Shown piece by piece: positions 2,612 to 42,640 of a DNA stretch of 64,000 nucleotides. The notes beneath the pieces are model-generated. The model was given only the letters and a program-made list of their open reading frames with translations. It was not told where the DNA came from and searched no databases. The position numbers and the translations under genes are program-made. The stretch's first letter is position 1. Each line of letters begins with the position of its first letter. Source of the DNA: Blasia pusilla (lineage: Eukaryota); the NCBI GenBank assembly GCA_050084515.1, contig CM114271.1, positions 43,772,001 to 43,836,000 of the forward strand, given 5' to 3'.

Positions 2612-5600
2612 ATGGGACCATATCTTCGATCTGCATCGATATGTCTTCGATCTGGGAAGCGGAAGGCCGTGATGCCAGATTACAGGCATTCCAAGGTTTG
2701 CCGGAAGGACCTTCTATTTAGACAGACACTTTCCATGGTTTTTATTTCACCTCACACAATTGCGAGTGACCTTGTAGGGATTCCCCACTGGTGTCGTAAC
2801 CATGGATTGTTCCTGATGTATGTGTTGTTCTCTTTGCAGATGAGGTTTCCAAAACGTCAAACTAAGGAGAGAAGTGGTATCCTTGATAATCCTCATGACC
2901 AAAAAGTTACAGGGAAAGCTCAGAGATGTCGAGATGGAGTTGTAGGTGAGTCAGCCGTGCTTTATTCTATCCCTCCTCGCGAGTGAATGTGGCTCTGCTC
3001 AAAGGCATGTATGTGACTTCGAAATCTTGTGCCGATTTTAAGAACCCCAGATCCCATGGGTAACTTGGACAGGCAGATTTCGCGCTTAGTAGAAGGCATT
3101 GAAATGTCGTTTGAAGCAATCGTGAAAGTTTTGTGTTACTTTCATGAAGTAAAGTTAATTTTAGTTTCTAAGCACATTGTCTGCTGCAAGGAGTCGTCGC
3201 TCAAGCAGGTTTTCACAGAGTCTTCTGGATCTGCAGACAAAGCTCAGTCTGGAGCAAACAGAGACAACGAGGTCCCGGGAGAAAGCCAGTGGCTAAATCC
3301 CCGGGACAAGCAGCAAAGGGTGCTGAAAGAGGTTGATAAAGTCATGATCAAGAATTTCGAGGAATTGAGTCTTTCAGAACGGCGCCAGATGATACTTCAG
3401 TACATAGACGACCTCTCAAAGGTCGTGCAAGATCTTGAAGCTGTGTTCGGGCGATGTTTGGGACTGACTACCTCCCAGCGCCTGCACGTACCAGAGAAGC
3501 ATGAGACAACGACGGAATCTACAACACAGAAGCCTTCCTCCAGTGAGCATGACCCTAGCGATCATGGTACTCGGGCTCCCATGATAACAGATGAAGGAGA
3601 CCCAGGCGATCCCAGCGCAGGAGTGGCATCTAGAGGGAAATTATTGCATCCTAAAAGTGGGGCTCAGTGCCCGGCAGAGAGTTACATTGATGCGGCAGAT
3701 CGATCGCAAGGGGGTGACCACGTAAGTGTTGACAACGATACTTCGGTACCAGAAGGAGCCATGCAAGCACACCAGGACATCCTATCTTCCTCTCGAAGGG
3801 ACGTCATGGATGTTCATAAAGCTAATGCACCACTCGATTGTGACTCCATGGATCAAGTGTACCGTGAGGATGACGATCAAATAGGTGCGCTTTCCACACA
3901 AGCAGCGGGAGCAAGTGTTCTGCACAATGAGCAAGTCAGCCGAGTCGACGATGATCAAAGTTTTGCACCCACAAAGCAACGCATAGGCCAAAACCTGGAG
4001 GCAGATGTCTTCCAGAAAAGGAGGCGAAGGAAGAAAAGGAGAAAATTGTTTACGCATATCAAGAAACACCACGTGCAGTTCATCCCCAAACGACGTGCAG
4101 TTCGGGATGGCAAAGTACGAACTCCTCGAAGTGACGAAGTTGAAATGAAAGACAGAGAACCCAAAGTCACGAAGAAGCCGCATGTCTTAGTTAATGAGCA
4201 TGACGAGGAGAAAACGGTTTATGAGCCCTACGATAGGACTTCAGACGCAAAGAAGCAACGAATTGTGGACACAGATCCAGACGAGGATGAGCTTGCCGGA
4301 TACTTTCAGGAACTTGCCTTCTTCTCGGATGATGGATGGGTAAATTCTACTCTGTTCCACTGTCTGCTCCGAGGGTTGTAATCTTTCCCTGTAGATTGCG
4401 AAGTTTAGGGACTCTGAGAGATTGGGCAAATCTTTTGTATGGTTTAAATCCTCAATGCTATGGACATCTCCATGAGGTTTAATCTCCACTGCTGATCTCC
4501 TATCAACGTATTGCCAACATGGAGTCTTCTCTAGGTTTCACCACTTTTATTACCTTAATGGAAATACCACTTCGTGATTGCAGGGAAAACCAAAACCCAT
4601 GATGGAGGAAAAAATGAACTCCAGGGATAAAGAGGGGTGCTCACACAAGTATCAGCTGGAAGATGATGTAGGTTGGGTATGCGAGCAGTGTGGGTTAGTC
4701 ATTCAAGATATACAATCTGTTTTCCTGCCTGAGGTAAGAACTGATTTTGCCGCAAGAAAAAATAGACTTGGTTGTTGGGGATGACTCAAACTAAAGGTCT
4801 TCTAGGATTTTCTCGCTTAGCGAATGCCTTTTTCCCTTGAAGTTATTAGTGTTCGTTCAATGGGTGTTGATCCTAATCCTTTCGGTTTTTTGTATTCTTT
4901 ACTCTGCCTAAAATTCGAGTTTCTGTGTAGATTCTCATGTCGTCTAAGAAACAAGCTCCAACGCAGCGCGCACAGGAAGATATTGCGGAAAGCAGTTCCT
5001 TGGAGCATTCTAGGAAATTCCTCCCCTTGCCGACGTCAGGGGAGAAATTTCCTAGACTGAATTTAAGCTTACACCCATTTTATGATGAGCATCTCCACCC
5101 GCATCAGAAGGAAGGTTTCAAGTTCCTAGCAAAAAATCTTGTAGGTGAATCCAGTAGCAAGCTAGAACCAGGAGGCTGCATCCTTGCCCATGCCCCAGGA
5201 ACTGGAAAGTCCTTGTTGACAGTCAGTTTCATCCAGTGTTTCCTGACTGCGTTTCCAGAAGGAAGACCCGTGATTGTGGCCCCAAAGATCATGCTGAAGC
5301 CCTGGGAGAAGGAGTTCGAGAATTGGAATGTTGAAGACATTCCTACATACAACTTGAACGAGTGTGGCAAAAAGGGAGGACGTGGTACGAAGGACGCTAT
5401 GGATACCAGGCTCTGTGGAAACCTTCAGAGCAGGAGGTTGAAGCTCATCAAGAAGTGGCTCCAAACAAGGAGTGTTCTGCTCGTGAGTTACAACTTGTTT
5501 CACATCTTGATTCTCAAGGGTCTGGAGGATGAGTCCTTTGGATCTATAAAGCAGCAGATATGTCAGGCATTACTGGAAGGGCCGGAATTGCTCGTTCTTG

Positions 5601-6871
5601 ATGAAGGGCACTTTCCACGAACTAAGCGCACAAAAATCTCTCAAGCACTCATGCGGGTGCATACAAAACGCAGAGTGCTTCTAACAGGTACACTGTTCCA
5701 GAACAACTTCAAGGAGATCTTCAACCTCCTGAGGCTCTCCAGGCACAATTTCATGTCTTTCCTTCCTGAGTTTGCAGCTGAGTTGAAAGCTCGAGAGTTA
5801 GGCAAGAAGAATGACGATAACCTCACAGTGGAGGAGATCGACATGAGTACACGGGAGTGTGAAGAACAGATGTTTATGGAAGGTATTGGATGCAAATTGG
5901 AGGATTTTGTGCAAGGAGCTAGTTACTCTGAAGATATGAATAGGGTCTTGCACAAGTTACGGGCACTCACTTCTCCGATTGTTCACTGGTATGCTGGACA
6001 AATCCTCGAGAATCTTCCGGGTCTTAGCGAGTTTGTAGTCTACTTGAATCTCACAGAAGATCAGCAGGAATTGTACTCGCATCTGAAATGCAAAAGAGGC
6101 CTGGAAGAGAGGACAAGAATTGCCGAAGTATGCATCCATCCAGCACTCCTGAAGAACGATGACAGTCTTGCTATATCAGGTCCCCAACTTCATAGTGAGC
6201 AGGAACCCCTCAAAGGAGTGAAGACGGCTTTTGTCTTCCATCTCTTGCGCCGCTGCATGGTCTGTAACGAAAAGCTGCTCATTTTCTGTCAGACTCTGGG
6301 GCCCCTTGCTCTCATCGGGTCTATGCTCACCAAGATGATGGGCTGGTCAAGAAGTATCGAGTTCGTCTGTCTAGACGGAACAATGCAATCTGAAGACAGG
6401 CAGCAGGTGATCGATCAGTTCAACGAGGGAAGCAGTAAAACCCGTGTCATGCTGGCCTCGATCACAGCTTGTAAGGAGGGTATCTCCCTTGTGGGAGCTT
6501 CACGAGTGGTAATTTTGGATGTCCTTTGGAATCCATCTGTGGTTCGTCAAGCCGTCAGTCGAGCGTTCAGGTTAGGCCAGACGAGGAAAGTCTATGTTTA
6601 CAGGCTGGTCGCAGCCAACACCAAAGAGGAGAAAATCTTCCAGGGGGCAATTCAGAAGGATTGGCTCTCAAGGATATTGATGGATCAATCCTTCAGGATG
6701 ACTAGCAGGGGTTTCAATCCCGCGAACATCTTACGCATCGATAAAACTCCCTGTGATAAAATGCTGCAGAATCTAGTGGAAACCGATAAATGCAACAGGA
6801 TTGATCGTATCTGTCGATACCAAACACTCTCGTCCAGCGCCGCTGACAGATCAAAGTGGGACTACGAATGA
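2612..6871 (+). CDS. CLASSY/DRD1-subfamily SNF2 chromatin remodeller (RdDM-associated), multi-exon
   Basis: The last exon 4931-6871 has SNF2 motifs GGCILAHAPGTGKS, LVLDEGHFPR, LLTGTLFQNN and WNPSVVRQAVSRAFRLGQ. Exon 4584-4733 has the CLSY/DRD1-type CxH...GxxCxxCG motif (CSHKYQLEDDVGWVCEQCGLV). Phase-0 GT-AG junctions at 4339/4584 and 4733/4931 join the exons in frame. Upstream exons at about 2612-2695, 2840-2945 and 3165(or 3219)-4339 are phase-compatible, but the start codon is uncertain. Confidence 0.9.
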
Positions 6872-8009
6872 GAGGAAAATCCAGACGAGGCGTGAAGATT
6901 ATCGGGGTGAGACCGACTAATGTCCACGTTTGGCTTGCGCCATAGCTCATGAGGATAAGTGACACGAATTTATCTGAGTCAGCGCAGAAATGAAGCACAT
7001 GCACAGCGAAGGACTACTGTGCATTCTGATTCTAATAGGACAGGTTTCAAGTATCCGTATGCAAATATGTAGGAAACTTCGATTCCTGGACTTGGTCTTC
7101 TTTGGTTGAAAACTGCCGCAGGGACGTCGAATTGTACAGTAATGTATCGCAATGACACACTGACAGAGCTTTCCTCTGAAAGACGCACTTCCACACACAA
7201 CTGAATTTATAGAAACCTTACCCACGTTTGATTTTCAACTTCGCATATCCGCGTGCATGTCTTCTTTCACTTTTGAATTGAAAGGCCTACTGCTCTTACA
7301 CAACGATTCCTTACCGGGAAATGAGAAGTCCTCGCTTGACTCGGAACCCAACGGAAGTACGATGGCCCTCTCTTTTAGCCTCAACGGCCCTCAAAAAGAA
7401 AAGGGGCACCTCGCATAAGTCAAACTCATCAATAGCATATAGCACAGAAATATTAGCTTCGTCTAGAATGACAACCGTTAAGAACACTTTTTACGGGGAT
7501 CTTTCATGGCCTAAGCCCGTTGGAAAAGCCAACTAGTTTAGGCATGCTCGAAATTTAGGGTTTATGGAGATTTGTTGTCTACGCTAAAGAATCGTAGTAG
7601 TTAAAGTTGACTCATTCATCGATTGAAGATGAAAGTGCAATTCGTGAGGAACGAGTCCCGCCTCTTCCCCATAACTTCATATATTTATGTGGTTAGGAGG
7701 ACGAATCGATGTCCGCCATGAAGTTGATTATAGAGATGGGTCTTCTTCACTGCTGCAATTTTTGCCGACATTTCTTGTAGCAATCTTCCTTGTGCTATCA
7801 CCTGAGTTCGCATAGACTCCCACGTAGGATCCCTCACTACAACATCTACCATCACCACCATAACCTCTTGTGTCATGTCAATTTAATTTCCAAAAAGAGG
7901 AAATTAAATTGTGATCATGAATGTTTAATCATAATATGGAGTGGTATTTTTGTTCCCATGCGATGCATTGAGTAGGAAGGACCTTCTTGGCATTCAAAAG
8001 GGTACCTTG

Positions 8010-8897
8010 TGTTTGTGTTATCGTGCGCATACACATCGCTGTTCACTTCCACACAACAGACATCGTTGAGCTTCTTAACACATGCAAAAAATTACAATCA
8101 CAAATGTATACCAAGACCACATGTACGACCGATCCACAAGGCAACTTGGTCTCTTAACTTTATGTAGCACACATTGTATCCACTAGATACAATCTACAAC
8201 TTGATACACATTTGGCACATGCCTATAGTCTTATGAGAATCACATCAAGAAGAAGAGGGGAAGGGTAGAAAGGGGCGGGAGGATGATAAATCACAATAAA
8301 TGCCACCCTCTAAAACAACCATCACAAACCAATATGGTGGTTGCACCTCACAACTTCATACAACATACGCCTAAAGCCCATAGGTACAAGTGCCAAGCTT
8401 GGATCTATTCTCCCAACTAGAAGATGACATGGCACTCAATTGCGTATATGATCCTTCCAAACCACATCATCATGTCCTTCTAGCATGAGGACTTTGATAG
8501 ACAACATCTCATGCACACGGAAAATTTTCTCCCAGAGTTAACATCTAGCATTATTAGTGTTACATACACATATTCTTCATGATGAAATATTATGATCCCT
8601 AGACAATAGCCTCCTCCACAAATGGTTGCATATCTCAATGTATCCATATCTAGGTCATGAAGGTCCAATATCTCTGCCATGTTACATTGAATAACTAAAA
8701 GTAAGTTGTGCTCTTTCCTACATAGCAAAAATTATGGTGAAAATAACACTAAGAATGCCTACGAGTTGAAATGACACCCCGTTGCTAACTATGGAAAGTG
8801 TAGTTCTCACTCCCTTAAATGTTCACATAGCAAGCCATATTTGTATAGTACTCTCTTCACCGAATGACTACTTTCTCCGCCAATTTATTCGCCCCAA
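8010..8897 (-). mobile_element. Ty3/Gypsy remnant: integrase C-terminal half, PHD finger and 3' UTR/LTR piece (decayed)
   Basis: Minus-strand translation through stops and frameshifts gives ANKLAEKVV..KRVLYKYGL, DTLRYATICGGGY, LEGHDDVVWKDHIRN*VPCHL, then ATTILVCDGCFRGWHLL*..PPL (PHD-like). 8022-8053 GTGCGCATACACATCGCTGTTCACTTCCACA matches 12716-12745 GTGCGCATTCACATCGCTATACAATCCACA. Confidence 0.75.
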
Positions 8898-9044
8898 TTT
8901 TTTGGAACTATGGAATAGTCATCTTTCTAGGATTTGGTTGGAGCTTGTGTGCTAGAGTCTCAAATTTCCGCATGGCGGAAAATGGATATGGCTTGATGAC
9001 TATACGTAGATTTAAGAGTAGAGTTGGTCGTGACCTATTTCTAC

Positions 9045-9156
9045 TTCGAGCAAAGGTGTTGGCTGAACAAGGTACTGAGTTTAGAGGAGAGCTCCAAGCC
9101 TTGTATAATCAAGCGTTGATAGATCACCACACTATGTTTAGGGATCATCTTGGGGC
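9045..9156 (+). mobile_element. Inverted fragment of the Gypsy integrase core
   Basis: AKVLAEQGTEFRGELQALYNQALIDHHTMFRDHL resembles the rve segment EVLTDQGTEF...IDH..TS..HP. Confidence 0.7.
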
Positions 9157-9699
9157 TCCTAGAAAGATCACTATTAATTCCATAGGCTCAACATGAGAAA
9201 AGATGGCTAGTGAGAGCCATCTCCTCATCTTTTACACACTCCGGAAGAGGCAAAATAGCTTTTCCCCAAAAACAATAGAAAATGGCAATCTACGGGCATA
9301 CATATTATCGAATGCATGTTGACTTCATCAATATGTCACTTGGCTTAAAATAGCAAAAAAAAGATTTGTTGGAAATATAATACCCTCCCATATTGATGTT
9401 GAGAATTGAACACTCTTCTATAAATTCGTCTTAAAATCCTATGACATGTGGCATAAAATGAGAGTTTAAGGGGAATTGCTTAGACAAATAATGGTATAGA
9501 TATGTGGAATCATGGTCTTAAAATCCTTTTTTGAGAGGAAAATTTTCTCATTTCCTCCAAAATTAGAGGAGGAATGTAAAATGGATGAGTAATCATCCAT
9601 GCGTATGTAATACTACTATTTGGGTGTACTTTTTGGGTAGTTTTTTTTAGAGAATGAGTAGTTTTTTTGTGTTCATAACGGATGTCCAAAATCCTCAAA

Positions 9700-12180: not shown

Positions 12181-12658
12181 TGGAAAATGTCAAGTATCAT
12201 GAGCAGAGGTGTTTTTAAGATGAAGGGGCTATAGTACGCATAGATATCGCTACACAATCCAAATTATTGGTCACATCCTCACCATACAACATCGATCTTC
12301 CCAACACACGGGTAGATCCATACACTTGTATGCAAAAATTAACTATTGCATGTACATGAGGAGGGAGATATGGCTTGAGAAAGCTATCACTCCCTCTCTT
12401 GTCGCCTTAGGAAGAGCCACGAGACTCTTCCCTCCAAGCAATCCCACCGGTAACATGCGTGCACACGTTATCGGGTGATGCTTGTTGTGGTCAACAACTC
12501 ACTTGGATGACAAAGACCAAAGTAGTGAAGTTGTTAGAAATGACGTTCCTGACACAATAGACTTGTCGTCAACCTCATCCGACACCTCACGACAAAGTTA
12601 CACCCAAACAATATGAGGATCTTCTATGTCATCGACGTGGTAGAACTCTACCTATCGG

Positions 12659-12712
<54 letters not shown>
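12659..12712. repeat. (CTAA)n tetranucleotide microsatellite, about 13 units
   Basis: Direct read; it lies within the LTR-like region. Confidence 0.95.
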
Positions 12713-13976
12713 TTTGTGCGCATTCACATCGCTATACAATCCACATTATGGGTTACATCTACATCACACAACACCAATCTTCCCAACACATGGATAGATC
12801 CACACACATACATACAAAAATGAACTCATGCATATACATCGAGATCACACAATCGCCCCTCTAGTTGACGATTGGGGGGGGGGGGGGGGCAATTGTCCCT
12901 AACTCTAGATACATCACATCTACCTAACATGATCTACTACTTTATATACATATAGCACTGTCAGTGTTTGTCATACACGTAATATCTCCCAACACATGCT
13001 CGCCCTCGGATCCATCTCATCTATCTCCACCTAGAGATTTCAATGCATGTGTATGTCATCTTGCAATACTACAGCTAACCCCCGTTTTGATCAATATCCC
13101 TCCAAAGAGATCTAATACTCTTGCATCCTCCTTTCGATGCTACCAACAACTCTCTTGGCTAACTAACACCACATATGAATGCTGCCAACGTGGTTATTGT
13201 ATCATTGTCTGGTCAACCACCTCATCCTACAAATGGCACGGGTAACTGACTCGGCTGGCCATCGCTTAATTGCCACCCTCACCGTAAGGCCACGGTCTCC
13301 TCCCAAAAATCAAGCATGAATCCTAGCGGATGTAGCACTATACTCCCCATCAATACATTTTACGACTCTATTGGTGTCATAATCGTACAAGTGCGCACCA
13401 AAGCATTATCTGTCGCATGCTCTGACTGGACTCTAATAACAACCTCATGTCGAGTCATGTATTGCGTAGGAGCCACATCCCCAACAGAGGTGTGTATCTC
13501 AAAGGGAGAAGGCTCAATATTGCCTTTCCGTAACCCCGACACCAAACATGACGCCTTCCCTAATATCAAGGGATGCACTCCCAAATCAAGTAGGACATGC
13601 TGTAGATAATACATTGTACCTATGGGACAAACCAAAAAATACACTCAAGCTTGGTTCTCCAATAACTCCACACGTGGTGTCACCATGGCTTGCTCTATCG
13701 CTGGCCTAGTTGACATATCTACCAACTTCACCATCCCAACTTGCCATGAGTGGATGGGGGATGTCTCCAGCATTTGGTGAGAGGGTAGGTCCACCACATC
13801 CTCACCAACCACCTCCGAATGAGAGGAAGTCATGTCTCCACGCTCAAATAACGTGGCAGCAATACGGAACACCTCCGTTCGTCTAACTCCCGATATCGCC
13901 AAATCCATCGTAGAAAAAAATGGAGCTTGGCTCACCCTACTAGCCTTCTTCATCAAGGAGGTTGAAATTTGCTCAC

Positions 13977-14060
13977 TCAATCCAACATAGAAGTCACCTC
14001 TCCAACTTCTCATGATCGACATCATGAGAAGTTGGAGAGGTGACTTCTATGTTTGATTGA
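13977..14060. repeat. Near-perfect inverted repeat (33-bp perfect stem, 4-nt loop, extends to about 40 bp)
   Basis: 13984-14016 AACATAGAAGTCACCTCTCCAACTTCTCATGAT, loop CGAC, and 14021-14053 is the exact reverse complement. Confidence 0.95.
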
Positions 14061-14725
14061 TGATTGGTGTAGATGAGGTCCGGTTGAGATTGATCATGGG
14101 CACCCTTGATTGTCTAGGCCCTATTGATGGGGTGTGAAGTGCCTCCGACAATGTAAAAGATTGTGGACCCCTGTCCTATCGCCCATCGGTCCCCTCCTAT
14201 AGGTCAATCTCAACCTGACCTCTCTATGGCTTGGTCACTCTCATAACACTCCGAGTCACCACCGCAACAATCTCTACCTGAGTCGCACTACACATAAATC
14301 TCAACCGAGTGTAATCCTCCCGTGTATCCTGATCCAACGTGGACGTTGGAGCTAAAGTAGCTACTGCCAGATCCTAATCTGTCATTGGCTGTATCATTGA
14401 CATGAGATCAATCCTCTGCTCCAATTGATCAATGCAAGTGAGGAGAGTTGCATCATGCACGTTCTCCACCTCCTCTGATTGATAGTGGAAGGCTAAAACC
14501 ATGATCTTCAACTCCATGACCTTGATCCTCTCTTGCCTCTTTGGCCTACCTGTGGATTTAGCTCGTGGCAAAGATTAAATCACCTATCTGTAGTGTGACC
14601 ATATTGGTGACAATGGTCACACTACAACTGTGGTGGGGCTATCCTAAGTGGCTCTTGAACAATCAAAGGCGCTCTCCGCCCTCTATCATATGGGAAGTCC
14701 CTCTACCTATGGGACCCACCATATA

Positions 14726-15732
14726 TATAGCGATCCTCATAACCAAACGAGTGCCAAGCGGAACATCAGAACTCTAGTGGGCTAACGCTAGGATAGTTTA
14801 CGCATTGCAGAGGTCTCTTGAAGGAGACACAAGATATGAGACGCGAACAAGGTTGAGTGTTTCATGCATTTATGGTTGTGAACAAGAAACCTAAACCAAA
14901 AATAAACTAAGACTTGAGAGACGTTGAGTCTAGGAAGAGTGGTTGCCAAAGAGGTGAGAATCGGATTTGGAACGTGACTAGCGTTTGAGATTTTGACTGT
15001 ATTTTGGACCATAACTTTTAGTCTCAAGATGTATTTGGCACAAGTAAGATGGCATTGGAAAGCTTATGCAAAGCCACTTCTAACGCACTAAAGATCTTAA
15101 TAAAAGCACTTGCATAAGAGTTGGGTTGAGGGCCAAAACAAGGGGCCTGAGAGTCTTTTCTCAAAATGTAGGGGGAGAGCGGAGAACCCCAAAAGTACTA
15201 GTAAGGGCGGAGGTCTTTAAGAATTCTTGGGACTCAAACCCCTCTTTGGGGCGCCGCGGGGAAAATCAAAGGTACAGAATGGATTGGGAGTTTGGCATTG
15301 GAAATTTAAATATAAACCAAGTCCAATAAAGTGGATTTCAAAGGTCCCTCTAGGATTCCAACCCAAAACTCATTTAAGTGGATCTCAAGTAGGGGCTCAT
15401 GCAAGGTCCATTGAACAGTTGGGACCGCCAAGCATATGATCGTTGTTTTAGGTGCGTGGACTATCCAAAAGGTCTATCCCAACTCTCGGAAGACTTGCTC
15501 GTGTTGAGAAGTGAGGAACTAGGAAGGTTGAGCTTGATGAAGTTTGCGAGTTCAGAACTCGGTTAGTTGGAAGGATGATTGACCTAGACCAAGCTAATGT
15601 GAGTGTGTTTGAGTGCAGATCAGCAACAAGAGCATGTCCTATTGAACGTACACTTCCGCAACACTAAAGATCGATGTTCAAGAGATCGATGCGCATGACA
15701 ATAGATCCAAAAACGTCGGTCCCGGCTCGCCA
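14726..15732. mobile_element. Solo LTR (~1 kb) nested in the zinc knuckle of Gypsy copy 2, with 5-bp TSD ATATA
   Basis: ATATA occurs at 14721-14725 and 15733-15737. The termini are TATAGCGA...TCGCCA (decayed TG...CA). Removing the insert restores a CxxCGGSH-like knuckle remnant. It is homologous to 41750-42640. Confidence 0.75.
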
Positions 15733-17664
15733 ATATATGTCAGTATCGGTCGTTGCCTATTGAGCTTACGCTAATCTTTGGGTACAATGCCCCGCTCTCA
15801 AGACAATGATGCATGGTTGGCACCTATAGGGCTCTTGCCAGTGGTTGTGAATCTTTTGACTCTCGGGGAAATCCTGTGGTCACAACCTGATCCTCACTCA
15901 TGTTGAACTTAATTCGCTTAGACAACTCGAAGACCACCTTCAATATGGGCTTCACCGTGTGAAGCAAGATCACATATTGGACTATCCTTTGCGGCTCTCG
16001 GTCCAAATCCTCGTATCCATACTGTATTGACTATGCCTCAATCACCCAATGTGTGGCAATGATCAATCGTCGCATCGGCGTGAATACCACTCTCAGACTC
16101 TCGCCCGATCTCCACTCAAAATCCTGTAGTCTCTTTAGTTTCTGGTCTGTACGCCCTTGTAGCTCCTCCGAAATTGTCGGAAGAACTCCAATGTAGGACT
16201 AAAACTCGATGGTGCTCTAGCACCAAAGGTCTTTACCACCTCACCGCCTTCATTGCCATCATCTCCATCTAGTCCGTGGTCTGATGATGTTGGCCTATCC
16301 CCTCTTATTACCCCATCATACACCTCGTAGCCACTAGTGGACACATACCGAGGAGCCCAATGCATACTCCAAGCACTAATCTCTATTACGTGTAGAGATT
16401 GAAATTCTCGATAGTCATTCATCCGAGGACCCTCTAATTGGTGGAACAAACCCTTCCACGCGATGAAAGGATCAAACCGCGTAGGGGCTCGCATCTCCCG
16501 GAAGTCACATCATGTGTGGAAATCTTGGGTGAAGTCGTTGAGATCAATGGTACCTACCGCACCCGAGAAATGACGCATGCCGGGGTGGCTTACGTCATCT
16601 ATCTTCCTCCATGTGACATTGTCTTTGTGTGCGATCTCATCACAAGACCCAATGTCTAGTGATGATGATCCAGCCATGGATGGGAGTCGGGGTGATTCCT
16701 CACTTGAAACCCCTCCACTCCATGTAACTTCACTACCACTACTCGGGCACTCCCCAACATTCTACTTCTGTCCTAAGTTAGTTTGCCCCAACAAAACTTG
16801 AGAAAAACAAACAACGGATCGATGCACAACTTTCCACACGAAAAATTGAGAAAGTGACATAAACATTGTGTCACTCCTCAGAAAGACAACTTGTCCGCCG
16901 ACCTACATATAACGAAGCCTTTAATAATAATGAGCAGTTCCCTCCCTCCTATTGCCACGTATTCTTCTAGTGGCATTTGGGTGCGAAGTCAATTTGGAGG
17001 GCAAAATGCTAGTTATTTTGGCGTACCTTCTCTTATTTGTCGGATGTAATGGAGATGTGAGACTATTCTCACTCCGCGTGAATGGAAACATGAGCGTACT
17101 CACTCCTCGTCTCCCCTCTCAATTCCATTCTATTCTCTCCATGCCTAGTGTTAGTGTTTCCTCCATGCCGTGTTGGTGTTTCCTCCACTTTCTTAGTGCT
17201 CTCTATGTTATTACCTCCACACCTAAATTGCTCCATACCGTGTTAATTTCTTTTTTGATTTTGGTTTAAAAAAACCCAAAAACCGTTGGTTGCAATTTTG
17301 CATGTTCGTTTTAGGGTCTTAAAATAAGTAAGTACGTCCGTGTGAAAGCGAAAGCCCCTCGTGGTTTAATTTCGGGTGGATGACGTTGTGCTGCGGGGCT
17401 CCGTTCTTTTGTTGTTGGACCTTATCCTTTCGCTTCCTTTCTACCGTCGGGCTCCATCTATCGCTGTGTGATTGTAAGCGTCGAGAATTCTCAACACGTG
17501 AGGCACTGCGAGGAGGGCACAGTTAGCAGCTATGGCAGCGTTGCACGCGACAACGAGGAGCGTTGCGGCCGCAACATCGTGCTTTGTGGCTTCAAATTCT
17601 TCACGACAGCTGCTGGATTCACCTGCGTCCGTATGCGTGGCCAGTCCTAGCGGGCTTTACACTT

Positions 17665-22199: not shown

Positions 22200-25100
22200 G
22201 TGGTGGTGCGGCATCGGCGTTGGTCATCACGGAGCTGTCTGGTGGTATGGTTGGGGACCGTGGTGTGGACAGTGGTGGTTTTACACGGAGTGGATTGAGG
22301 TATCGACTACCTTTTCCAGTTTGGACGGTTGATGAAGAAGAGGACGAGGGTGTTCCAAACACCGAGTCTTCTACGTTGTTATCGAGAGTTGCAGCTCCAT
22401 TGATTTGGGATATGGACGGGTTATATGGGGCCATGAAGGGCCCACGACCATACTCGAGTGCAGTGAACACCATTGAGTTGGAGGACTTCATTCAGGAGTT
22501 TGATACATGGTGTGATATGCAGATGTTGCGAAATGCCACGTTGTTTACACCCTTCTTGGCTTGAAAGGGGTTGTTTCATCACTTGGAGGGACCACCCATG
22601 GATGATTACCATGAGTTTAGGAAGGACCATGTTGTTGAGATTGAGGCGTGGAGACAATATTGGTCTCCAGGCTATGTGTCTATCACCCATGGTGGTATTG
22701 GTAGTAGTGCTCCTACTATGCCAGCCAGCCCGACGTTGAGTGGTATAAGTACGAGCCAAAGTGGGGATACCAGTGGAGGTACCAGTGGGGGTACTAGTGC
22801 CCCACCATCGTTCATCCCGGTTGCAGAGTTCTTTAAGAGGTTGAAGAAGAACTATCATGGAGTGAAGACACAGAAGTTGAGGAGTCTTCAGGAATTTGAG
22901 CGAAAGACTGGTGAGAGTCTTCGTGAGGCATACACTCGTACGCCACGCTTGATTTCACTTACCCAGGGTGTGACTGAGGCTCAGGCAGTCTAGTTTTAGT
23001 ATGGGATCTTGGACAGAGAGTTGCGCCGCAGGGTACGTGATGTTACTCTTATGAGTGATGATTTATCCACATTGACCCATGTGTTTGCTCTATCTGAGAA
23101 GATTAAGCTTAACATGGTGGAGGAGAGAGTGGTGACATCCGCATTCACTAGGGATACAACTACTACTTCTCGTGTTCAGCAGTCCACCTCACAGTCTCGT
23201 AGTAGTGGTGGTGGTAGTAGTAGTGGGAGTTGTGGAGGGTACACACGACCTCAGTCACGTCCTAGTGGGACACTTGCGCAGAGACCATTGCCTTCATTTG
23301 CTGCCCCGCAGCAAGGACAGTCATGTTGGACATATGGAGATGATCATGTTAGGAGGTTTTGTCCCCAAGAGGATGGGAGACGGACTTTGGAGGATGGGCC
23401 TCAGTCGGCCTCAACTCAGTGTGATCATTGCGGGAGACCATGTCATCCTCAAGAGCGTTGCTTTGATCTTCATCCAGAGTTGAGATCAAGCCGCGGCCGT
23501 GGTGGAGTAGCTCCGAGAGGCCAAGGTGGTAGAGGTGGTAGGGGTGGTAGAGGTGGACCAGTGGTTGGAGAGCCTACGGTGGCTACCCCTACCACTACGA
23601 CAGAGTGAGCTATGGTTGCCAGGATTGAGCAGTTGGAGCATAATTTGGCTACTATGGCTGGTATCCAACATAGAGTAGGTTCGGGAGCAAGGGCTTCCAC
23701 CTCTTATGGAGGGGATAATCTCTCTTATATGGAAAGTGCAACACAAATTGAGGCATCAGCTGCAGTTACGAGAGGAGCCACTCGAGCGTCAGAGCCACGT
23801 GGTGCTACTGTGCAGTTGGACCCACATAAGGGTGAGGCTGGGAGGCCGGCTAGGCTTCCCCAGTCATTCTTGTTGTCTAAGGTGGTTAGGACCCCATCCA
23901 TGGTTCCTACGCAGCCTATTGAGCCTACAGTGGGGACTTAGGCATCTACATCGCGTGCAGTAGACATGGATGCAGCATCCAGTGCAATATTGCGGATGGC
24001 AACTTCAGTGTTGGGATCCCCATTGTTTTCGTCCATGGAGCTGATGCCTTTAGGAGTTGACTTAGCTCATGTATTTCAGCTAGCAGCCACGTTGTGTGAA
24101 CGTGGGGGTGTTATTGCTACATGTGCTGAGGTGGATGAGGGTGTTGCGGTGGAGCGACCCTCTATGTCAGATGTAGCATTGAGTACCAGTGCTACTTGGC
24201 AGGCAGTAGCGGCGAAGATGGATGCATTACCAGCCCGGCCAGCCATTGATCGAGAGAGGCTTACACATGGTGTATATATGTTGGACAACCGGAGTGGGAT
24301 ATTCCGATTGGTGAGTCCTACAAGACAGGTGTATAGACCAGATAGAGTCTTGTTAGACTCTGGTGCCCAACCTTTGATGTTGGGAAAGGCGGCATGTATT
24401 GGTTTGGGTATTCGGAGGTCAGAGCTTGAGCCTTGCCCATTCCAGATTCAAACACCACTTGGAGGAGCCAATGATAGGTCTCAATTTATGGCATAGGAGA
24501 AGTTGTCTGTACAGTTGAGACCAGATCATGCAACTGATAGCTCACGGTTGGGAGTACCTGCAGTGGTCACATCAGCCGAGTCGTATGATGTACTAGTTGG
24601 AGGAGCAGTATTGTACCCGATGGGTTTTCAGATGGACTATTGGACTGAGACAAAGTCTTATAGACCTGGTTGGCAGTCCAGGGATGGAGTTATGAGGCAG
24701 GTTCCTGTGAGATTTATTTATGGGGCTCAACCATGAGGATCTTCCCCAACAGTGTTAGCATCTGTGGCTGGTTTTAGTGGAGTAGTCACTTGGCCAGAGA
24801 TTTTTTGGAGGGTTATCTTTCTGCTATGGATTCTCCTGTGCATGAGGAGGTAGAGGAGGTCCCTAGTTTTGCAGCAGTGGCATCCTCATCGTTGGATGTG
24901 CCACTTTGGAGTTCAGGCGGTGCACTACGGTAGGAGGTGATAAATGCAGTGCGGGGGGGCTTGGTGTGAGGCTGTTATACCTCACGAGGAAGAGGAGGCC
25001 CCACGGCGGACTCCTACTTTTGGTCCAGTTGGGTTATCCCCTTTGGATACTACACCCATTGTATGGCAGTATCCGCCGGAGGGCATTTGTGTGTTAGATC

Positions 25101-27730
25101 TATTTGGTGGGATTAGCAGTGGTTTGGCTCCAATGTTGCACGCCGGTATTCCTGTGCGGAGATACGTGTATGTGGAGCAAGATGAGACGGCCGAGAGAGT
25201 CTCATTCCGACATATCGATCAGTTGATGCGGAGATATCCTGAGTTGTTGCCCCCATCAGCTATTTGTGGGTGCCAGCATGCTTTGCCGTCACACATTGCA
25301 TTCTTGGGGGCGCAGGATCTTGAGAGGGTTGGTCGTGTGGATTTGGTGATTTTTGGATGGCCATGTCAGGGTCATACACGTGCTGGTCGTTGTGAGGGAT
25401 TACAAGACCCTAGGTTTCGATGGTTTTGGGAGATGTTACGGGTGTTACAACATCTTCAGGTTCATCAGGCACGTGCTCCAGCTTACATTCTGGAGAATGT
25501 TCCATTGTTGGATGACACTCGGACCCGGATGATGGCGAGTGTTCATGAGGTGCGGTCTTGGATTGGACCAACCGTGTTGTTGGATGCAGCGCGAGTTGGC
25601 TTGTGTGCACATCGTCCACGCTTGTGATGGATAAACTTATTGCCTAGGGAGGTTCTTCGTCGAGCATATGATGCAGTGCAGCGGGATGCTTGCCTTACAA
25701 TGGATAGTATCTTGGATACTGGGCGACTTTCTCAAGTGGTGAGGGTTATTGATCGGTCACCAATGGGAGTGGTGAACCGTGTGGGCCAGCCTAGGATGGC
25801 ACTACCCACATTTGTGAGTTTTTCCTCATCACATGCCTACAGGGAAGGTGGTGCCGTGCTTGTATGGGATTCTCATGTGCGACAGTTGGTGTAGCCTAAC
25901 GCTGATGAGAGAGAGCGTGCGATGGGATTTGCTACTAGTGTGACAGTGGTTGCTTCCATTTCTGAGGCTTCACGACGTCATGTGTTGGGTCAGGCCATGG
26001 ACCTAAATTGTTTGACCTGGATTTTGAGTCTTGGGATGGCCGAGCAGCGTCAACTTTGGACTATGTCTATGGGTCTTCCACCCCTTGTGATGAGCTCGAT
26101 GGCTACAGGGACGGTAGAGACATCGGCTGGGGGCGAGGAGAATAGTATTTTGCATCCTTGGAGTAAATGGGATGTAATGGCTGGGCATGTGGAGTTGGTT
26201 GCTCAAGCTGGTGGAGGAGTTATTTGCTCAGATGATGGTGTAGCTAAGGGTGTACCATCTTGTGAGGGGGTTGCCTAGCAGCCAATAGCGTCGTCCTCTC
26301 CCTCTAGTGTGCCAGTGGAGGAGACTTGGGAGCCATTACTTGGGCCCAAGCTTAGGGGAGGTGAGAAGCGACGCTTGACACAATTCCTACCTGCTTATAG
26401 GAGTTGTTTTGCCTTTAGCATGAAGGAGTTGGGTGCTTTGGTTGGACCCGATATACGGATTGATTTGGCTAGTGATTCGCCAATCTCCCGTCGTCCCTAC
26501 CGATATAGTGATATGGAGAGGGACCTGATTCAGAGTAGGACGTTGGACCTTTTGGAAGTTGGATTAGTGGAGTTGTCGCATGGAGAGTATGCATCAGCCA
26601 CTGTCATGCATGCTAAAAAGGATGTGCATGGCAACTACACGGATAGGTGGATGTGTGGAGATTACCGTCCTATCAATCGACAGACCAAGGCTGATAGGTA
26701 TGCCATGCCTACACCTGAGGAGATCTTTGATGTGGTGGGACAGGCAAAGATTTCCAGTACTTTGGATCTTCGGGCATGATACCATGAGTTTCCAATTCAA
26801 GAGAGTGACAAGGCCAAGACAACATTTTGGGGTGTCAACTCTCATGGCAAGGATTGTTTGTACCAGTGGAAATTCTTACCCTTTGGGTTGAAGAATGCAC
26901 CTGCCGAGTTTCAGAGAGTGATGGACAGGATTCTAGCAGTGTTGGATTTTGTTCGGTGTTACATTGATGATATCTTGGTGTTCACTAACACGGTGGAGGA
27001 GCATCAGATACATTTGTAGATTGTGTTTGAGCGGTTGAAAGCTCATGGTCTATGTTTGCATCCAGGAAAGTGTAAGTTCTTCCATGAGGATGTTGAGTCC
27101 TTGGGTCATGTGATCTATCTAGGTGGTTTGGGAGTTCAGCAAGCAAAGGTGGAGGCTATTGCATTTATTCCTCGTCCGGTAGATGTGAGAAGAGTTCGGG
27201 CATTCATGGGATTGGCGAACTACTATCGGAGGTATGTGAAGGGATTTAGTGCTATGGCAAAGCCTTTGAAGCAATTGCTGAAATCAGATCAGGAGTGGCA
27301 CTGGGAAGATGATCAGGAGAGAGCTTTTGTGGAGCTCAAGGCCCAGTTGGTGACGGCGCCTATCTTGAGGAGACCTATCAGAGGGCGCCTATTTCAGTTA
27401 CACACTGATTGGATTCGGTTGGGACTTCGAGCGGTGTTGACACAACATGATGATGAGCACATGGAGTTTGTGGTGGCCTATGCAAGTCGTTCGAATAATG
27501 CAGCGGAGTCGCGCTATAGTTCATATGAGGGAGAGTGCTTGGTAGTAGTATGGGCTGTGGCACACTTTAGGTGTTACTTATTTGGCACACACTTTACCCT
27601 TGTTACTGATCACCAGCCGCTCAAGTGGTTGATGGAGTCTGACAAGCTTACAGGGAAGCTTGCAGGGTGGGCTCTTATCTTACAGGAGTATGACTTCAAG
27701 GTGGTACATAGACTTCTAGGCGTGTTCTAG
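22200..27730 (+). mobile_element. Ty3/Gypsy retrotransposon polyprotein remnant: Gag-ZnK-protease-C5 DNA methyltransferase-RT-RNase H, truncated before integrase
   Basis: Eleven ORF pieces (22220, 22571, 23009, 23612, 23966, 24503, 24944, 25640, 25922, 26309, 27023) are all in the same frame. Motifs: CCHC-like knuckles at about 23320-23480; LLDSGA protease at about 24350; RT CGDYRPIN, PFGLKNAP and YIDDILV at about 26960; RNase H LHTDW..YASRS..VTDHQPL. No LTR was recognised. Confidence 0.95.
25082..26030 (+). pseudogene. C5-cytosine DNA methyltransferase domain inside the retrotransposon pol
   Basis: Motifs in canonical order: I VLDLFGGISSG, II YVEQD, IV DLVIFGWPCQG, VI YILENV, VIII AHRPRL*W, IX PNADERERAMGF, X RRHVLGQAMD. 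There are two in-frame stops (25625, 25892). Confidence 0.92.
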
Positions 27731-32312: not shown

Positions 32313-34768
32313 ATGGCTTCCATCAGAGCAGTAGCTATGGGTGTAGCACCTGCCTCGTTGACTTCTCTACACGAAGAGCACAGGCCTCATAGATTCGGGA
32401 GATATTGTCTGAGGAGCTCGTCTCTGTTCGGAGCTGGGTTAGATCTGCCAGTCTTGAGCCAAAATTTTCATTCTGTAGAAGCCGTGACACATCAGGGGGG
32501 CACGGCGCGCGCGCAAGGATCAGAGGATGGTGTTCCGCAGGTTCCTGCGAGCCACAAAATCAAGGTTGCCAGTCTCGCTGCCTTCGAGCAGCTGCGGAGC
32601 GCCAGCAACAACCGTAAGTTTTTTTCCGCACCTCGTCTCACACAGTACTTCCATCTGCACGTAGAATGAATGCACCATCGCACACCTGTTCTCTGGCTTT
32701 CTGTGGAAATCGTAGAGCTTTTCCTCGATCAATTCGCTTCGACCTCCACGTCTAGGATCGCATTCTCAGTGATGGCTTGTGTCACTGCGTCAAGTAGTCC
32801 AACATACGCAATTATCAAGAAATTGAGCCCTTCCAACCAATGTTGAGTCTGTCACCGCTCTGTTTCTTAAAAACCGCAGAAAGTTTCCATCCTCCGAATG
32901 GCCGCTTCTTACACTCAGACATACGATAAGTCTTTCCTTGCTCTTAACCCCTTGTACTATCGATGATGGGACGACATCCCGCCCTTCTCTATGGATTCAA
33001 CTGCCGTTACAGAGAATGATCGTATCCGTATCCTCGCTTTAGTTACTGTTAGACAAGCACTTGATATCCGTGAAATCACGCAGGAGGGATTGTGATTGCA
33101 GCGGTGGATTTGAGAAGATTTTCGTGCTTGTTAAACAGGGTACACAAGTGCGAAGAGCAGTATTTTGGTTTTGGGACTGAGTGTGCACACCGCTCCAGTT
33201 GAAATGCGTGAAAAGTTGGCTATACCAGAAGCAGAGTGGCCACGAGCGATCGGTGAACTTTGCGCTCAGAACCACATCGAGGAGGCTGCCGTGCTGAGCA
33301 CCTGTAACCGTATGGAGATCTACGTCGTGGCTCTTTCCTGGAACAGAGGGGTGCAAGAAGTCACTGAATGGATGTCCAAGGTAGCATTTCGTTTCCATCT
33401 CGAACAGTTCTGTTGGGTTGAGCATTGGCTTTATCCTTGTTTACTCCTGAGTTCTTCGTGAACAATTGGACGTACGAAGCCCTCGGAAGCAATGCAGTTC
33501 TATTTTTCCTTTCCATAATTGAGACGTTGGAGTTTTTTTTTCTCACATCTCCAAGTTATGAACGTCGAGCGGCAACAATTTGTGGGCCTGATCTTGCGAA
33601 ACATGAAATAAACTTTCCGTGATTGCAATTTGTGCAGACGAGCGGTATTCCGGTGGAGGAGCTGAGGGAGCATCTTTTTATTCTACGGGACCGTGATGCA
33701 ACACAACACTTGTTCAGGGTTTCCTCTGGCCTCGATTCTCTCGTGTTGGGGGAAGGCCAAATTCTTGCTCAGGTGAAGCAAGTCTACCAAGTCGGACAGT
33801 CGGCACCCGGATTTGGTCGGAATTTGAATGGCCTTTTCAAGCAAGCGATCACAGCTGGAAAGCGAGTGCGCTGTGAAACAAACATCTCCGCAGGAGCCGT
33901 GTCTGTGAGCTCTGCTGCTGTCGAGCTTGCTGTGATGAAGTTACCGGAGCAGGGAATCGCAAATTCCCGTGTTCTCATTGTGGGCGCAGGAAAAATGTCG
34001 AAGTTGCTGGTCAAGCATTTGATATCCAAAGGTTGCACCAAAATGGTGATTGTGAACAGGTCAGAGCAGCGCGTTCTCGATTTACAGGCAGAATTCTCTG
34101 GGGCTGAACTTGCTTACGAGCCCCTCACAGAAATGATCAGGTGTGCGGAGCACGCCAATGTCGTTTTCACCAGTACTGCATCTGATACCTGCTTATTCCT
34201 GAAGGAGCATGTGGAGAAGCTTTCTGCACCTCCTCAGTCACTAGGTGGCGTTCGGCATTTCATAGACATATCAGTCCCTAGAAATGTCGGTGCATGTGTA
34301 GCAGAGGTGCCCTCGGCCAAAGTCTACAACGTCGATGACTTGAAAGAGGTGGTCGCGGCCAACAAAGAGGACCGGAGGCGAAAGGCGTTGGATGCGCAGG
34401 TCATAATTGAAGATGAACTGAAAAGTTTCGATTCGTGGAGGGATTCACTAGAGACAGTCCCCACTATCAAGAAGCTCAGAGCCTATGCTGAAGCCATCAG
34501 GGCCTCGGAGCTGGAAAAGTGCGTGGGGAAAATGGGGGATGACGTGACGAGGAAAAACCGGAAGCTCATTGAAGAGCTGAGCCGGGGCATCGTGAACAAG
34601 TTGCTCCATGGGCCCATGCAACATCTGAGAAGTGACGGTTCTGATGCTCGGACTGTAAGCGAGACTTTAGAGAACATGTACGCACTAGAAAGAATGTTCG
34701 ATTTGAAAAATGATGTCAGCGCCTTGGAGCAGCAATTCCGGGCTGCTGCAGAGAAAGTATCTCAATAG
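32313..34768 (+). CDS. HEMA: Glutamyl-tRNA reductase, plastid-targeted (copy A); exons 32313-32613, 33139-33380, 33638-34768
   Basis: [16 protein letters not shown], catalytic [23 protein letters not shown]-binding GAGKM and DISVPRN are present. GT-AG junctions are phase-consistent. Exon 1 resembles a transit peptide. Confidence 0.97.
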
Positions 34769-41749: not shown

Positions 41750-42640
41750 ATTATGACCCTTATAGCCAAACGTACGCCGATGCGGAACATCAAAACTCTA
41801 ATAGGCTCACACTAGGATGGATACGCGTCGAGGAAGTCGCTTGAATGAGACAAGAGATGTGAGACACCAGCAAGGTTAGGCGTTGCAAGTGATAATGGTC
41901 GTGACCCAGTAAACCTGAACCAAATGTGAAGCAAGACTTGAGAGGAGCTCAATTCCTATGAGAATTGGGCACTAATGGGACTTAGAACTTGGTTAGCATT
42001 TGAGATTTTTGCGGTGTATAAAGTCATAACGACCAAAACCAAGATGCATTTGGGATGAATAAGATGGCATTAGAAAGCTTATGCAAAGACAGTTCCAACA
42101 CACCAAAGATCGACAAAAATGCATGAATAGAGATTGAGAAACTATCCCAAAACTATCATATTGGTAGTGGGGTTAAGGGCCGAAAGGAGCGACCCAAGAG
42201 GACTTTCCCAAAGGTGGGGAGGGGTTGGAGATCTCTTGAACTATACATAAGGGGAGGGTCTCCAAGGGGTGCTTGGAACCTGAAGTCTACTTTGGGGAGC
42301 CGTAGGGCAAACCAACGACATGGAATGGATTGGTAGGTCAGCTTCAAAGTGTGGACATCAAGCCAAGTCCAAGTGAACGAATTATGGATCTCAACTTTGG
42401 ACCTCGACTCGTGACCCATATCTTGGGTCTCGGTTAGAGTTTCATTCGAGATTGATTAGACAATTGAAACCGCCACATGCGCAAGGGCCGTTTCAGATGT
42501 TTAGATTATTTAGGAAATTTGACTCAAGTCTAGAAAGATTTACTTGTGTTAGAAGTGAAAGGTTAGGAATTGTTAAGCTTGACGGAGAGCCAGAGTTAGG
42601 AACTTGGAAAGAGGGAGCTCAAATCAGGGGTGATAAGTAT
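41750..42640. mobile_element. Solo-LTR-like repeat of the same family as 14726-15732
   Basis: Colinear blocks such as GCGGAACATCA.AACTCTA, AAGATGGCATT.GAAAGCTTATGCAAAG and TGTGTT.GAAGTGA..TAGGAA..GTT.AGCTTGA. Confidence 0.75.

Follow-up and report, generated by a model that had tools for sequence, protein, structure and literature searches.

The decayed coding remnant at positions 8010-8897 of the window, by which we mean the entire 64,000-nucleotide stretch of Blasia pusilla DNA that was analysed, was confirmed as the dead integrase-PHD end of an abundant Ty3/Gypsy family. The full element of this family, about 9-10 kb long, carries in order Gag, zinc knuckles (ZnK), protease (PR), a DNA methyltransferase (DNMT), reverse transcriptase (RT), RNase H (RH), integrase (INT) and a PHD finger. 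This architecture, which the first-pass annotation had proposed, is secure. Of the 40 INT-PHD places and the 40 DNMT places scored in the genome (390 Mb in 26 contigs, nine of them 14-69 Mb long), 20 each were examined, the former with 10 kb of surrounding sequence, and 20 upstream extensions were added. Both termini could be placed in 16 of these 40 copies, with L027, L048 and L054 excluded for doubtful ends. A DNMT match on the same strand was found upstream in 19 of the 20 PHD-anchored loci, the exception being L040, which has no Gag-PR-DNMT part, and a PHD was found downstream in 14 of the 20 DNMT-anchored loci, the remaining six being truncated or interrupted. The expectation that both domains would lie between one pair of LTRs held as far as their co-occurrence is concerned, since 15 of the 16 copies with both ends located contain DNMT and PHD together, which also answers the objection that DNMT-bearing copies might lack the PHD; it failed for the LTR pair, the place of which is taken by split repeats. 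The complete order was likewise present in a single environmental protein of 2811 aa (P0200), and the order DNMT-RT-RH-INT-PHD in 21 of 80 metagenome loci (80 retained out of 350).

The family in this genome and its relics in the window

The domain order PR-RT-RH-INT is that of Ty3/Gypsy elements, and the integrase is of the DDE type, with the Pfam domains rve and Integrase_H2C2 (the HHCC domain). No chromodomain was matched behind the integrase, where the frame ends at the PHD, so that the element does not qualify as a chromovirus; nor was a tyrosine recombinase found, as would be expected of a DIRS element, the DDE integrase being located behind RNase H. Exact three-motif patterns counted 213 and 233 element 3' ends in the genome, read depth (at a likeness of at least 88%) indicated about 200-650 copies over the bins from DNMT to PHD, and the family comprises several hundred copies. 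The longest frame among the 40 copies does not exceed 539 codons. Relative to the majority base, C was replaced by T at 9.3% of CG, 10.3% of CHG and 2.2% of CHH sites, compared to 0.9% for changes from A/T to G/C, and this excess at CG and CHG sites indicates that the copies were methylated. Element reads amounted to 110-121 per million in three RNA runs, mostly from one strand, versus 17,222 in DNA. In three copies (L025, L031 and L039; oriented positions 3300-8570) the terminal repeats are 97-99% identical, yet the coding part differs from that of L058 by 58-103 small indels, copies with more diverged repeats having 23-47. These indels are patchy and mostly private, which rules out a young non-autonomous subfamily whose members share frameshifts and leaves three alternatives, namely trans-mobilisation of decayed templates, an error-prone copying process or faulty assembly. 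In a scan with PF00145, 123 of 5348 first-look candidates in this genome yielded scored matches, and the four best of them (L164-L167) are located on two other contigs (C20:83149-83655, C20:29599-29892, C23:4769-5122 and C23:47659-48012); the translations of L164 and L165 look like bacterial or phage methyltransferases, and their contigs are possibly contaminant.

The relic in the window reads on the minus strand and is broken up by stops, frameshifts and one deletion between 8897 and 8258. It begins with the end of the integrase core (8897-8644; 69-72% nucleotide identity to relatives, and tblastn), which the deletion sets off from the adjoining piece, and goes on with the C-terminal integrase extension running into the PHD (8657-8346; 74% nucleotide identity to the full-length copy L022). 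In tblastn against a relative whose INT-PHD frame is free of stops, 8866-8258 aligned with 37% amino acid identity (E 1e-30), and a second alignment to that frame, 8525-8346, reached 60% (E 2e-17). The PHD itself (8365-8258), with the motif LVCDGCFRGWHL at 8332-8297 and PPL at 8278-8270, was recognised by a profile of 33 natural homologous PHDs (E 3.9e-6), so that the claim of a decayed PHD-like motif behind the integrase C-terminus is borne out. The Pfam search that had been suggested for it failed: none of the three minus-strand frames of the relic PHD, translated with X, matched PF00628, and Pfam as a whole gave nothing relevant in nine such frames of the PHD and integrase relics in the window. 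The PHDs of natural copies do match PF00628 (E 1e-10 to 2e-11), and relatives with 70-75% DNA identity to the relic carry PHDs scoring about 1e-10. Two further pieces belong to the same relic, an inverted integrase-core piece at 9038-9157 on the plus strand (60% amino acid identity, E 2e-11, tblastn) and, at 9179-9272 on the minus strand, a piece of terminal repeat A around the predicted transcript start (75-77% nucleotide identity to A1 and A2 of L022 and L052).

Downstream, the relic ends in the last part of terminal repeat B (8020-8071, minus strand), with no A2-B2 behind it. The first-pass annotation had noticed a similarity between 8020-8160 and 12715-12910, the 3' end of a second copy. 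A pairwise comparison of 8000-8300 with 12700-12950 scored 35 where 500 shuffles reached a maximum of 36 and a mean of 20.8, and is not significant alone. However, an nhmmer profile of 32 natural 3' regions matched 8071-8020 (E 1.9e-5), 12940-12714 (8e-43) and 12361-12234 (5e-25), and these are one terminal repeat B rather than a separate small repeat; 8072-8160 was not recognised by this profile. The 3' end of copy 2 (12234-12940, minus strand) consists of B1 (about 12714-12852), a microsatellite at the B1/A2 junction, A2 (about 12370-12660) and B2 (12234-12361), and its internal part (13015-16745, minus strand; blastn to L022 and L052) retains Gag, protease and a short DNMT stub, RT to PHD being deleted. 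A different dispersed repeat lies within copy 2 at 14732-15360 and again at 41755-42139. Copy 1 (22453-27714, plus strand; Pfam PF00145 and RT_RNaseH), which belongs to a different subfamily, carries Gag, zinc knuckles, protease, DNMT (about 25070-26050), RT and RNase H and is truncated after RNase H; it shares 67-74% nucleotide identity with L022 and 90.6% with the first element of L035, which runs on into INT and a PHD. An intact 646-aa frame of the SNF2 helicase family (Pfam SNF2-rel_dom 7e-28, Helicase_C 3e-17) occupies 4931-6871 on the plus strand, roughly 1.1 kb away from the relic. We take it to resemble the CLASSY/DRD1 remodellers of RNA-directed methylation, but its proximity to the relic is probably due to chance, since the genome contains hundreds of element copies. 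Two genes, presumably for glutamyl-tRNA reductase-like proteins, lie at 33623-34768 (plus strand) and 43506-44648 (minus strand), in inverted orientation and 82% identical; no tRNA genes were found within the 64-kb window.

Terminal repeats and a proposed route of integration

Copies of the element consist of A1 (about 480 bp), the internal part, B1 (about 138 bp), two bases, A2 and B2, so that two complete direct LTRs flanking the internal part were not found and a complete A-B unit is present at the 3' end only. Among the 16 copies with both ends located, the termini are TGTC...GACA in 14, one begins with TATC and the start of L026 is uncertain. The flanking 4-bp target duplication is exact in ten and has one mismatch in six; L040 has an exact one despite the absence of Gag-PR-DNMT, and the centre is CC or GG in four of the ten exact cases, too few for a preference. 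Four of the 16 (L021, L033, L046 and L053) have the form A-internal-B, which may stem from a one-LTR circle or from recombination between B1 and B2. An extra 3' A-B unit (B-A-B-A-B) and one lone A-B-A-B were seen among L176, L177 and L178, and full A...B-A-B ends in four of the 80 metagenome loci. Troyka elements were ruled out as a match, as they have ordinary LTRs, CG...CG ends and a 3-bp duplication and occur in animals only.

Two signals of reverse transcription lie inside these ends. A purine tract directly precedes B1, and the 14 nt that follow A1 are complementary to part of A at 14 of 20 sites, 12 of them exactly (three of the six misses have no upstream DNA); the pairing partner is located 30-31 nt behind TATATAA in 12 of the 14 matching sites. 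Both signals are conserved in distant relatives, in which L118, L123 and L140 have self-priming matches of 15, 15 and 11 nt with different letters, the match in L143 being only 8 nt long. A tRNA primer was ruled out, because the site after A1 does not start with TGG. Together, the purine tract and the self-priming site point to B-nn-A as the LTR of reverse transcription, with the ends of the inserted copies falling within its U3.

On this basis we propose that the RNA starts inside A1 and would prime itself as in elements of the Tf1/Sushi group, that reverse transcription would yield linear DNA with B-nn-A at either end, that the two cDNA ends would be joined (A|B), and that integrase would then cut the left CA-nn-TG junction and insert A-internal-B-A-B. 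Joining of the cDNA ends is favoured by three aberrant copies that hold primer-site and leader DNA between A2 and B2. The mirror product A-B-A-internal-B was not found in either of two counts (three candidates against 213 3' ends and three against 233), which suggests that the left junction alone is used and rules out a two-LTR circle cut equally at either junction; since a simple two-LTR circle has two equal junctions, the asymmetry between left and right counts against the proposal. Also against it, no read pile-up was seen at the predicted transcript start in the three RNA runs, which have low depth.

As an alternative for the ends, copying might proceed as proposed for split-repeat elements of the DIRS type, with the RNA reaching B2 and the internal B-A junction templating both ends, so that no end-joining would be needed. 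The repeat layout is indeed the same as that described for DIRS-type elements (PMC5890265), the A|B junctions are mostly uniform, and the single product form would be accounted for. RNA reads spanning A|B (7-9 per run) are also in line with it, as a templated junction would give the same. However, the conserved purine tract and self-priming site define B-nn-A as the LTR, the leader DNA between A2 and B2 in the three aberrant copies speaks for joining, and the DDE integrase, TG/CA ends, target duplications and lack of a tyrosine recombinase are not those of DIRS elements. We therefore regard templated ends as rather unlikely and retain the joining of cDNA ends followed by a cut inside U3.

The methyltransferase, the PHD finger and the stop codon between DNMT and RT

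The closest solved relatives of the DNMT are DNMT3A, 3B and 3C (from E 1e-7), with DRM at 0.24 and HhaI at 0.3. Its motifs I, IV, VI, VIII, IX and X are conserved in the normal order without rearrangement, GWPCQG is present in 32 and ENV in 38 of 40 relatives with this layout, and the domain is intronless and situated in the polyprotein region, as in KnitGypsy-Dnmt3. The SAM-binding, catalytic Cys and ENV motifs are retained across bryophytes and algae, and the enzyme is DNMT3-like with intact motifs. Variants found in a quarter of the copies comprised five nonsynonymous and ten synonymous changes (ratio 0.17, compared to 0.75 for singletons), a purifying signal on the DNMT of this genome's family, although the counts are small; the PHD had zero shared variants among copies.

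The solved fingers closest to the PHD are those of PHF12, CHD4, KDM5A/B, DPF, PHF21A, BAZ2, AIRE and UHRF1. The PHDs of PHF12, CHD4, KDM5, DPF, PHF21A, BAZ2, AIRE and UHRF1 read unmodified histone H3 without K4 methylation, while PHDs that read K4me3 are marked by a Trp two residues before the zinc-binding His, a position occupied by Gly in 109 of 110 homologues of the element PHD. An acidic patch ahead of the first Cys is typical of several K4me0 readers and is missing from the element PHD. With its zinc-ligand motifs in place, the finger resembles readers of unmethylated H3K4, which would be its putative function.

In this genome's family the two domains, about 1100 codons apart, flank a conserved in-frame stop. 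TAG-CAA-CCA is located between DNMT and RT in 35 of 39 copies, and copy 1 of the window has an in-frame TAG followed by CAG CCA (26276-26284, plus strand), again in the context CAR-YYA. In the environmental locus L100, TAG-CAG-TTA alone separates a frame of 1369 codons from one of 1047, and Gag-PR-DNMT proteins from Calypogeia and Marchantia in the database terminate at the position matching the TAG. UAG-CAR-YYA is described as the read-through motif of tobamoviruses (PMC3542737). The exact TAG motif was found only twice in 59 metagenome loci, no more often than in control windows. One large metagenome family has TAG CAA CCC in the RT frame (six of six loci translated), while a second family, as well as the L118-type family, P0058 and P0200, has no stop between DNMT and RT; in such relatives DNMT and RT/RNase H share the same frame that the conserved TAG splits in this genome's family. 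In 11 of 20 decayed copies, however, a common 1-bp indel leaves the TAG and the DNMT in different frames. We consider TAG-CAR-YYA a putative read-through stop that splits Gag-PR-DNMT from RT-RH-INT-PHD, and the conserved stop implies that the DNMT would belong to the Gag-containing product, while the PHD would be joined to the integrase. The loose parallel that the first-pass annotation had drawn to DNMT3, in which an ADD reader is paired with the catalytic domain, is therefore weak.

Gag-PR-DNMT would accordingly be made in bulk and RT-RH-INT-PHD by read-through only. Because of this bulk synthesis the particle would be rich in DNMT, which most likely methylates the new cDNA, whereas the PHD would remain on the integrase, bind H3 tails without K4 trimethylation and steer insertion away from active promoters, so that reader and writer would serve one element as separate proteins at separate steps. 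For the mechanism as a whole, from self-priming, end-joining and the cut inside U3 to the bulk DNMT marking cDNA and the PHD steering integrase, we see an even chance.

Either within the read-through protein or as part of an integration complex, the PHD could instead tether the DNMT to chromatin unmethylated at H3K4, where methylation would be written at the insertion site as by ADD-DNMT3. Both domains have been kept together in streptophyte and chlorophyte relatives (of the 120 INT-PHD homologues listed, 71 match the DNMT profile), the chlorophyte layout places the DNMT immediately before the integrase, some streptophyte relatives have no stop, and the PHD class would fit K4me0 reading. Yet in this genome's family the stop, RT and RNase H separate the domains, the DNMT occupies different positions in different lineages with the PHD following the integrase in each, and Ty3 polyproteins are normally cleaved by their own protease, all of which makes a single reader-writer unit unlikely.

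We consider it equally improbable that the DNMT does not methylate element DNA at all, being instead a binding or decoy domain, acting on RNA or being dispensable in many lineages, with the PHD an ordinary integrase accessory. The isolated DNMT of the algal KnitGypsy element gave no methylation in yeast, a result that its authors call inconclusive (PMC5890265). Moreover, several chlorophyte DNMTs are short or degenerate (P0074, P0081 and P0122), the decay at CG and CHG sites would be expected from host silencing alone, and L040 shows an exact target duplication without Gag-PR-DNMT, although the loss may postdate insertion. The catalytic motifs kept across bryophytes and algae, together with the purifying signal in this genome's family, argue against this reading.

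Distribution and comparison with known systems

The DNMT search returned 48 proteins, the names of which include Marchantia, Calypogeia, Sphagnum and Closterium. The INT-PHD search returned 280, and 119 of the 120 matches listed carry PF00628, a count that is biased by the PHD-containing query; PF00145 is on record for 14 of them. Relatives occur in Marchantia, Calypogeia, Sphagnum and Coleochaete. No protein named as Klebsormidium was among the matches listed in either search, and a query of K. nitens proteins with the DNMT of P0058 gave four matches, none with a species name. Two layouts were found. In this genome, Marchantia, P0058 and P0200 the DNMT precedes RT, while in the chlorophytes Tetradesmus deserticola, Pleodorina, Volvox and Tetrabaena it lies between RNase H and integrase, its motifs being intact in T. 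deserticola and partly degenerate in the other three; the PHD is behind the integrase in both layouts. Several proteins of the chlorophyte layout also have a G-patch, and in some, including P0074, P0077, P0081 and P0090, the PHD is followed by a further 300-400 aa or so that gave no Pfam match in the proteins scanned.

In FastTree phylogenies, the DNMT of this element falls into a clade (support 1.0) with sequences from Calypogeia, Sphagnum and Marchantia, and its RT is sister to Marchantia sequences (0.995, midpoint root); both trees divide by layout. Since no host DNMT3 was picked out of the PF00145 scan, two bacterial-like enzymes served as the root of the DNMT tree, which without a cellular DNMT3 does not distinguish one capture from two, although a single capture with a move is likely. 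Our wider picture is tentative and, taken whole, somewhat doubtful: an old Gypsy lineage throughout the green lineage may have possessed both an active DNMT3-like enzyme and a PHD that reads H3 from a time before the split of chlorophytes and streptophytes, with the DNMT moved between two positions; in bryophytes the DNMT would be made at the level of Gag through a leaky stop, new copies would arrive methylated, and the joined cDNA ends would be cut by integrase inside U3. If true, the DNMT would not be a one-off capture in Klebsormidium, and the integration route would be one undescribed for LTR retrotransposons in the open-access literature found.

The reason for which retrotransposons carry cytosine methyltransferases has so far been studied in dinoflagellates and one alga. 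The presence of relatives in gene models of Marchantia polymorpha, for which genetics and methylomes exist, makes the role of the DNMT testable, and hundreds of dated copies per genome allow insertion sites and methylation to be analysed. The read-through stop predicts the amount of DNMT and the timing of its action, and the permuted ends suggest an integration route and would be missed by LTR-finding programs. Because of such copies, annotations of bryophytes and algae moreover count too many DNMT3 genes; some annotated Marchantia genes are pieces of this element, and one of them, P0042 (Mp_7g09570), joins a DNMT fragment to INT-PHD. In the open-access literature no DNMT3-bearing Gypsy element in bryophytes or chlorophytes, no DNMT-PHD pair, no such read-through stop and no permuted ends were found, and the sole DNMT3-like Gypsy element found described individually in print is algal. 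The ESM Atlas gave a family name only.

Among Gypsy elements of the green lineage, REM1 of Chlamydomonas reportedly bears a PHD finger. PHD fingers are known in algal retrotransposons (PMC6673714, PMC8557442, PMC9940879), and Gypsy-7a_cRei of Chlamydomonas, which inserts between genes 2.6-fold above chance, shares the PHD with the element described here but has an ordinary LTR pair and no DNMT named in its description (PMC9940879). Self-priming instead of a tRNA primer is shared with Tcn1 and the Tf1-Sushi chromoviruses, of which Tcn1 is present in mosses and clubmosses; however, those elements end in a chromodomain, while the polyprotein found here ends at a PHD and is combined with DNMT and split repeats (PMC6317226). 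The text of the REXdb paper names no PHD, methyltransferase or Marchantia (PMC6317226), and nothing on Gypsy elements with DNMT or PHD was found in PMC11244446 and PMC11982613. Cleavage of a palindromic LTR-LTR junction by a retroviral-type integrase has been described for foamy virus, where the cut falls on the joint of the cDNA ends (PMC1180852), whereas here it would fall inside the LTR and the joint would be retained in the insert. EpiLTRs likewise are LTR elements with a cytosine methyltransferase and a histone-reading domain, but they have a chromodomain and an adenine methyltransferase, their DNMT is sister to DNMT4, their hosts are Cymbomonas and Euglena, and their authors separate them from streptophyte Gypsy-DNMT3 (bioRxiv 10.64898/2026.05.21.726589).

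The closest described element is KnitGypsy-Dnmt3 of Klebsormidium nitens, compared here by its description (PMC5890265), in which the capture is ascribed to the K. nitens lineage with no replication model given. The term PHD is absent from the text and three supplementary files of that paper, though a figure may show the domain. Both elements are of the Gypsy type with a DNMT3-like domain, combine DIRS-like split repeats with Gypsy domains, show purifying selection on the DNMT and have copies methylated in non-CG contexts (PMC5890265). Unlike KnitGypsy-Dnmt3, the DNMT of which is described inside the Pol ORF, the element reported here resides in a land plant in hundreds of copies and has a putative read-through stop ahead of RT (PMC5890265).
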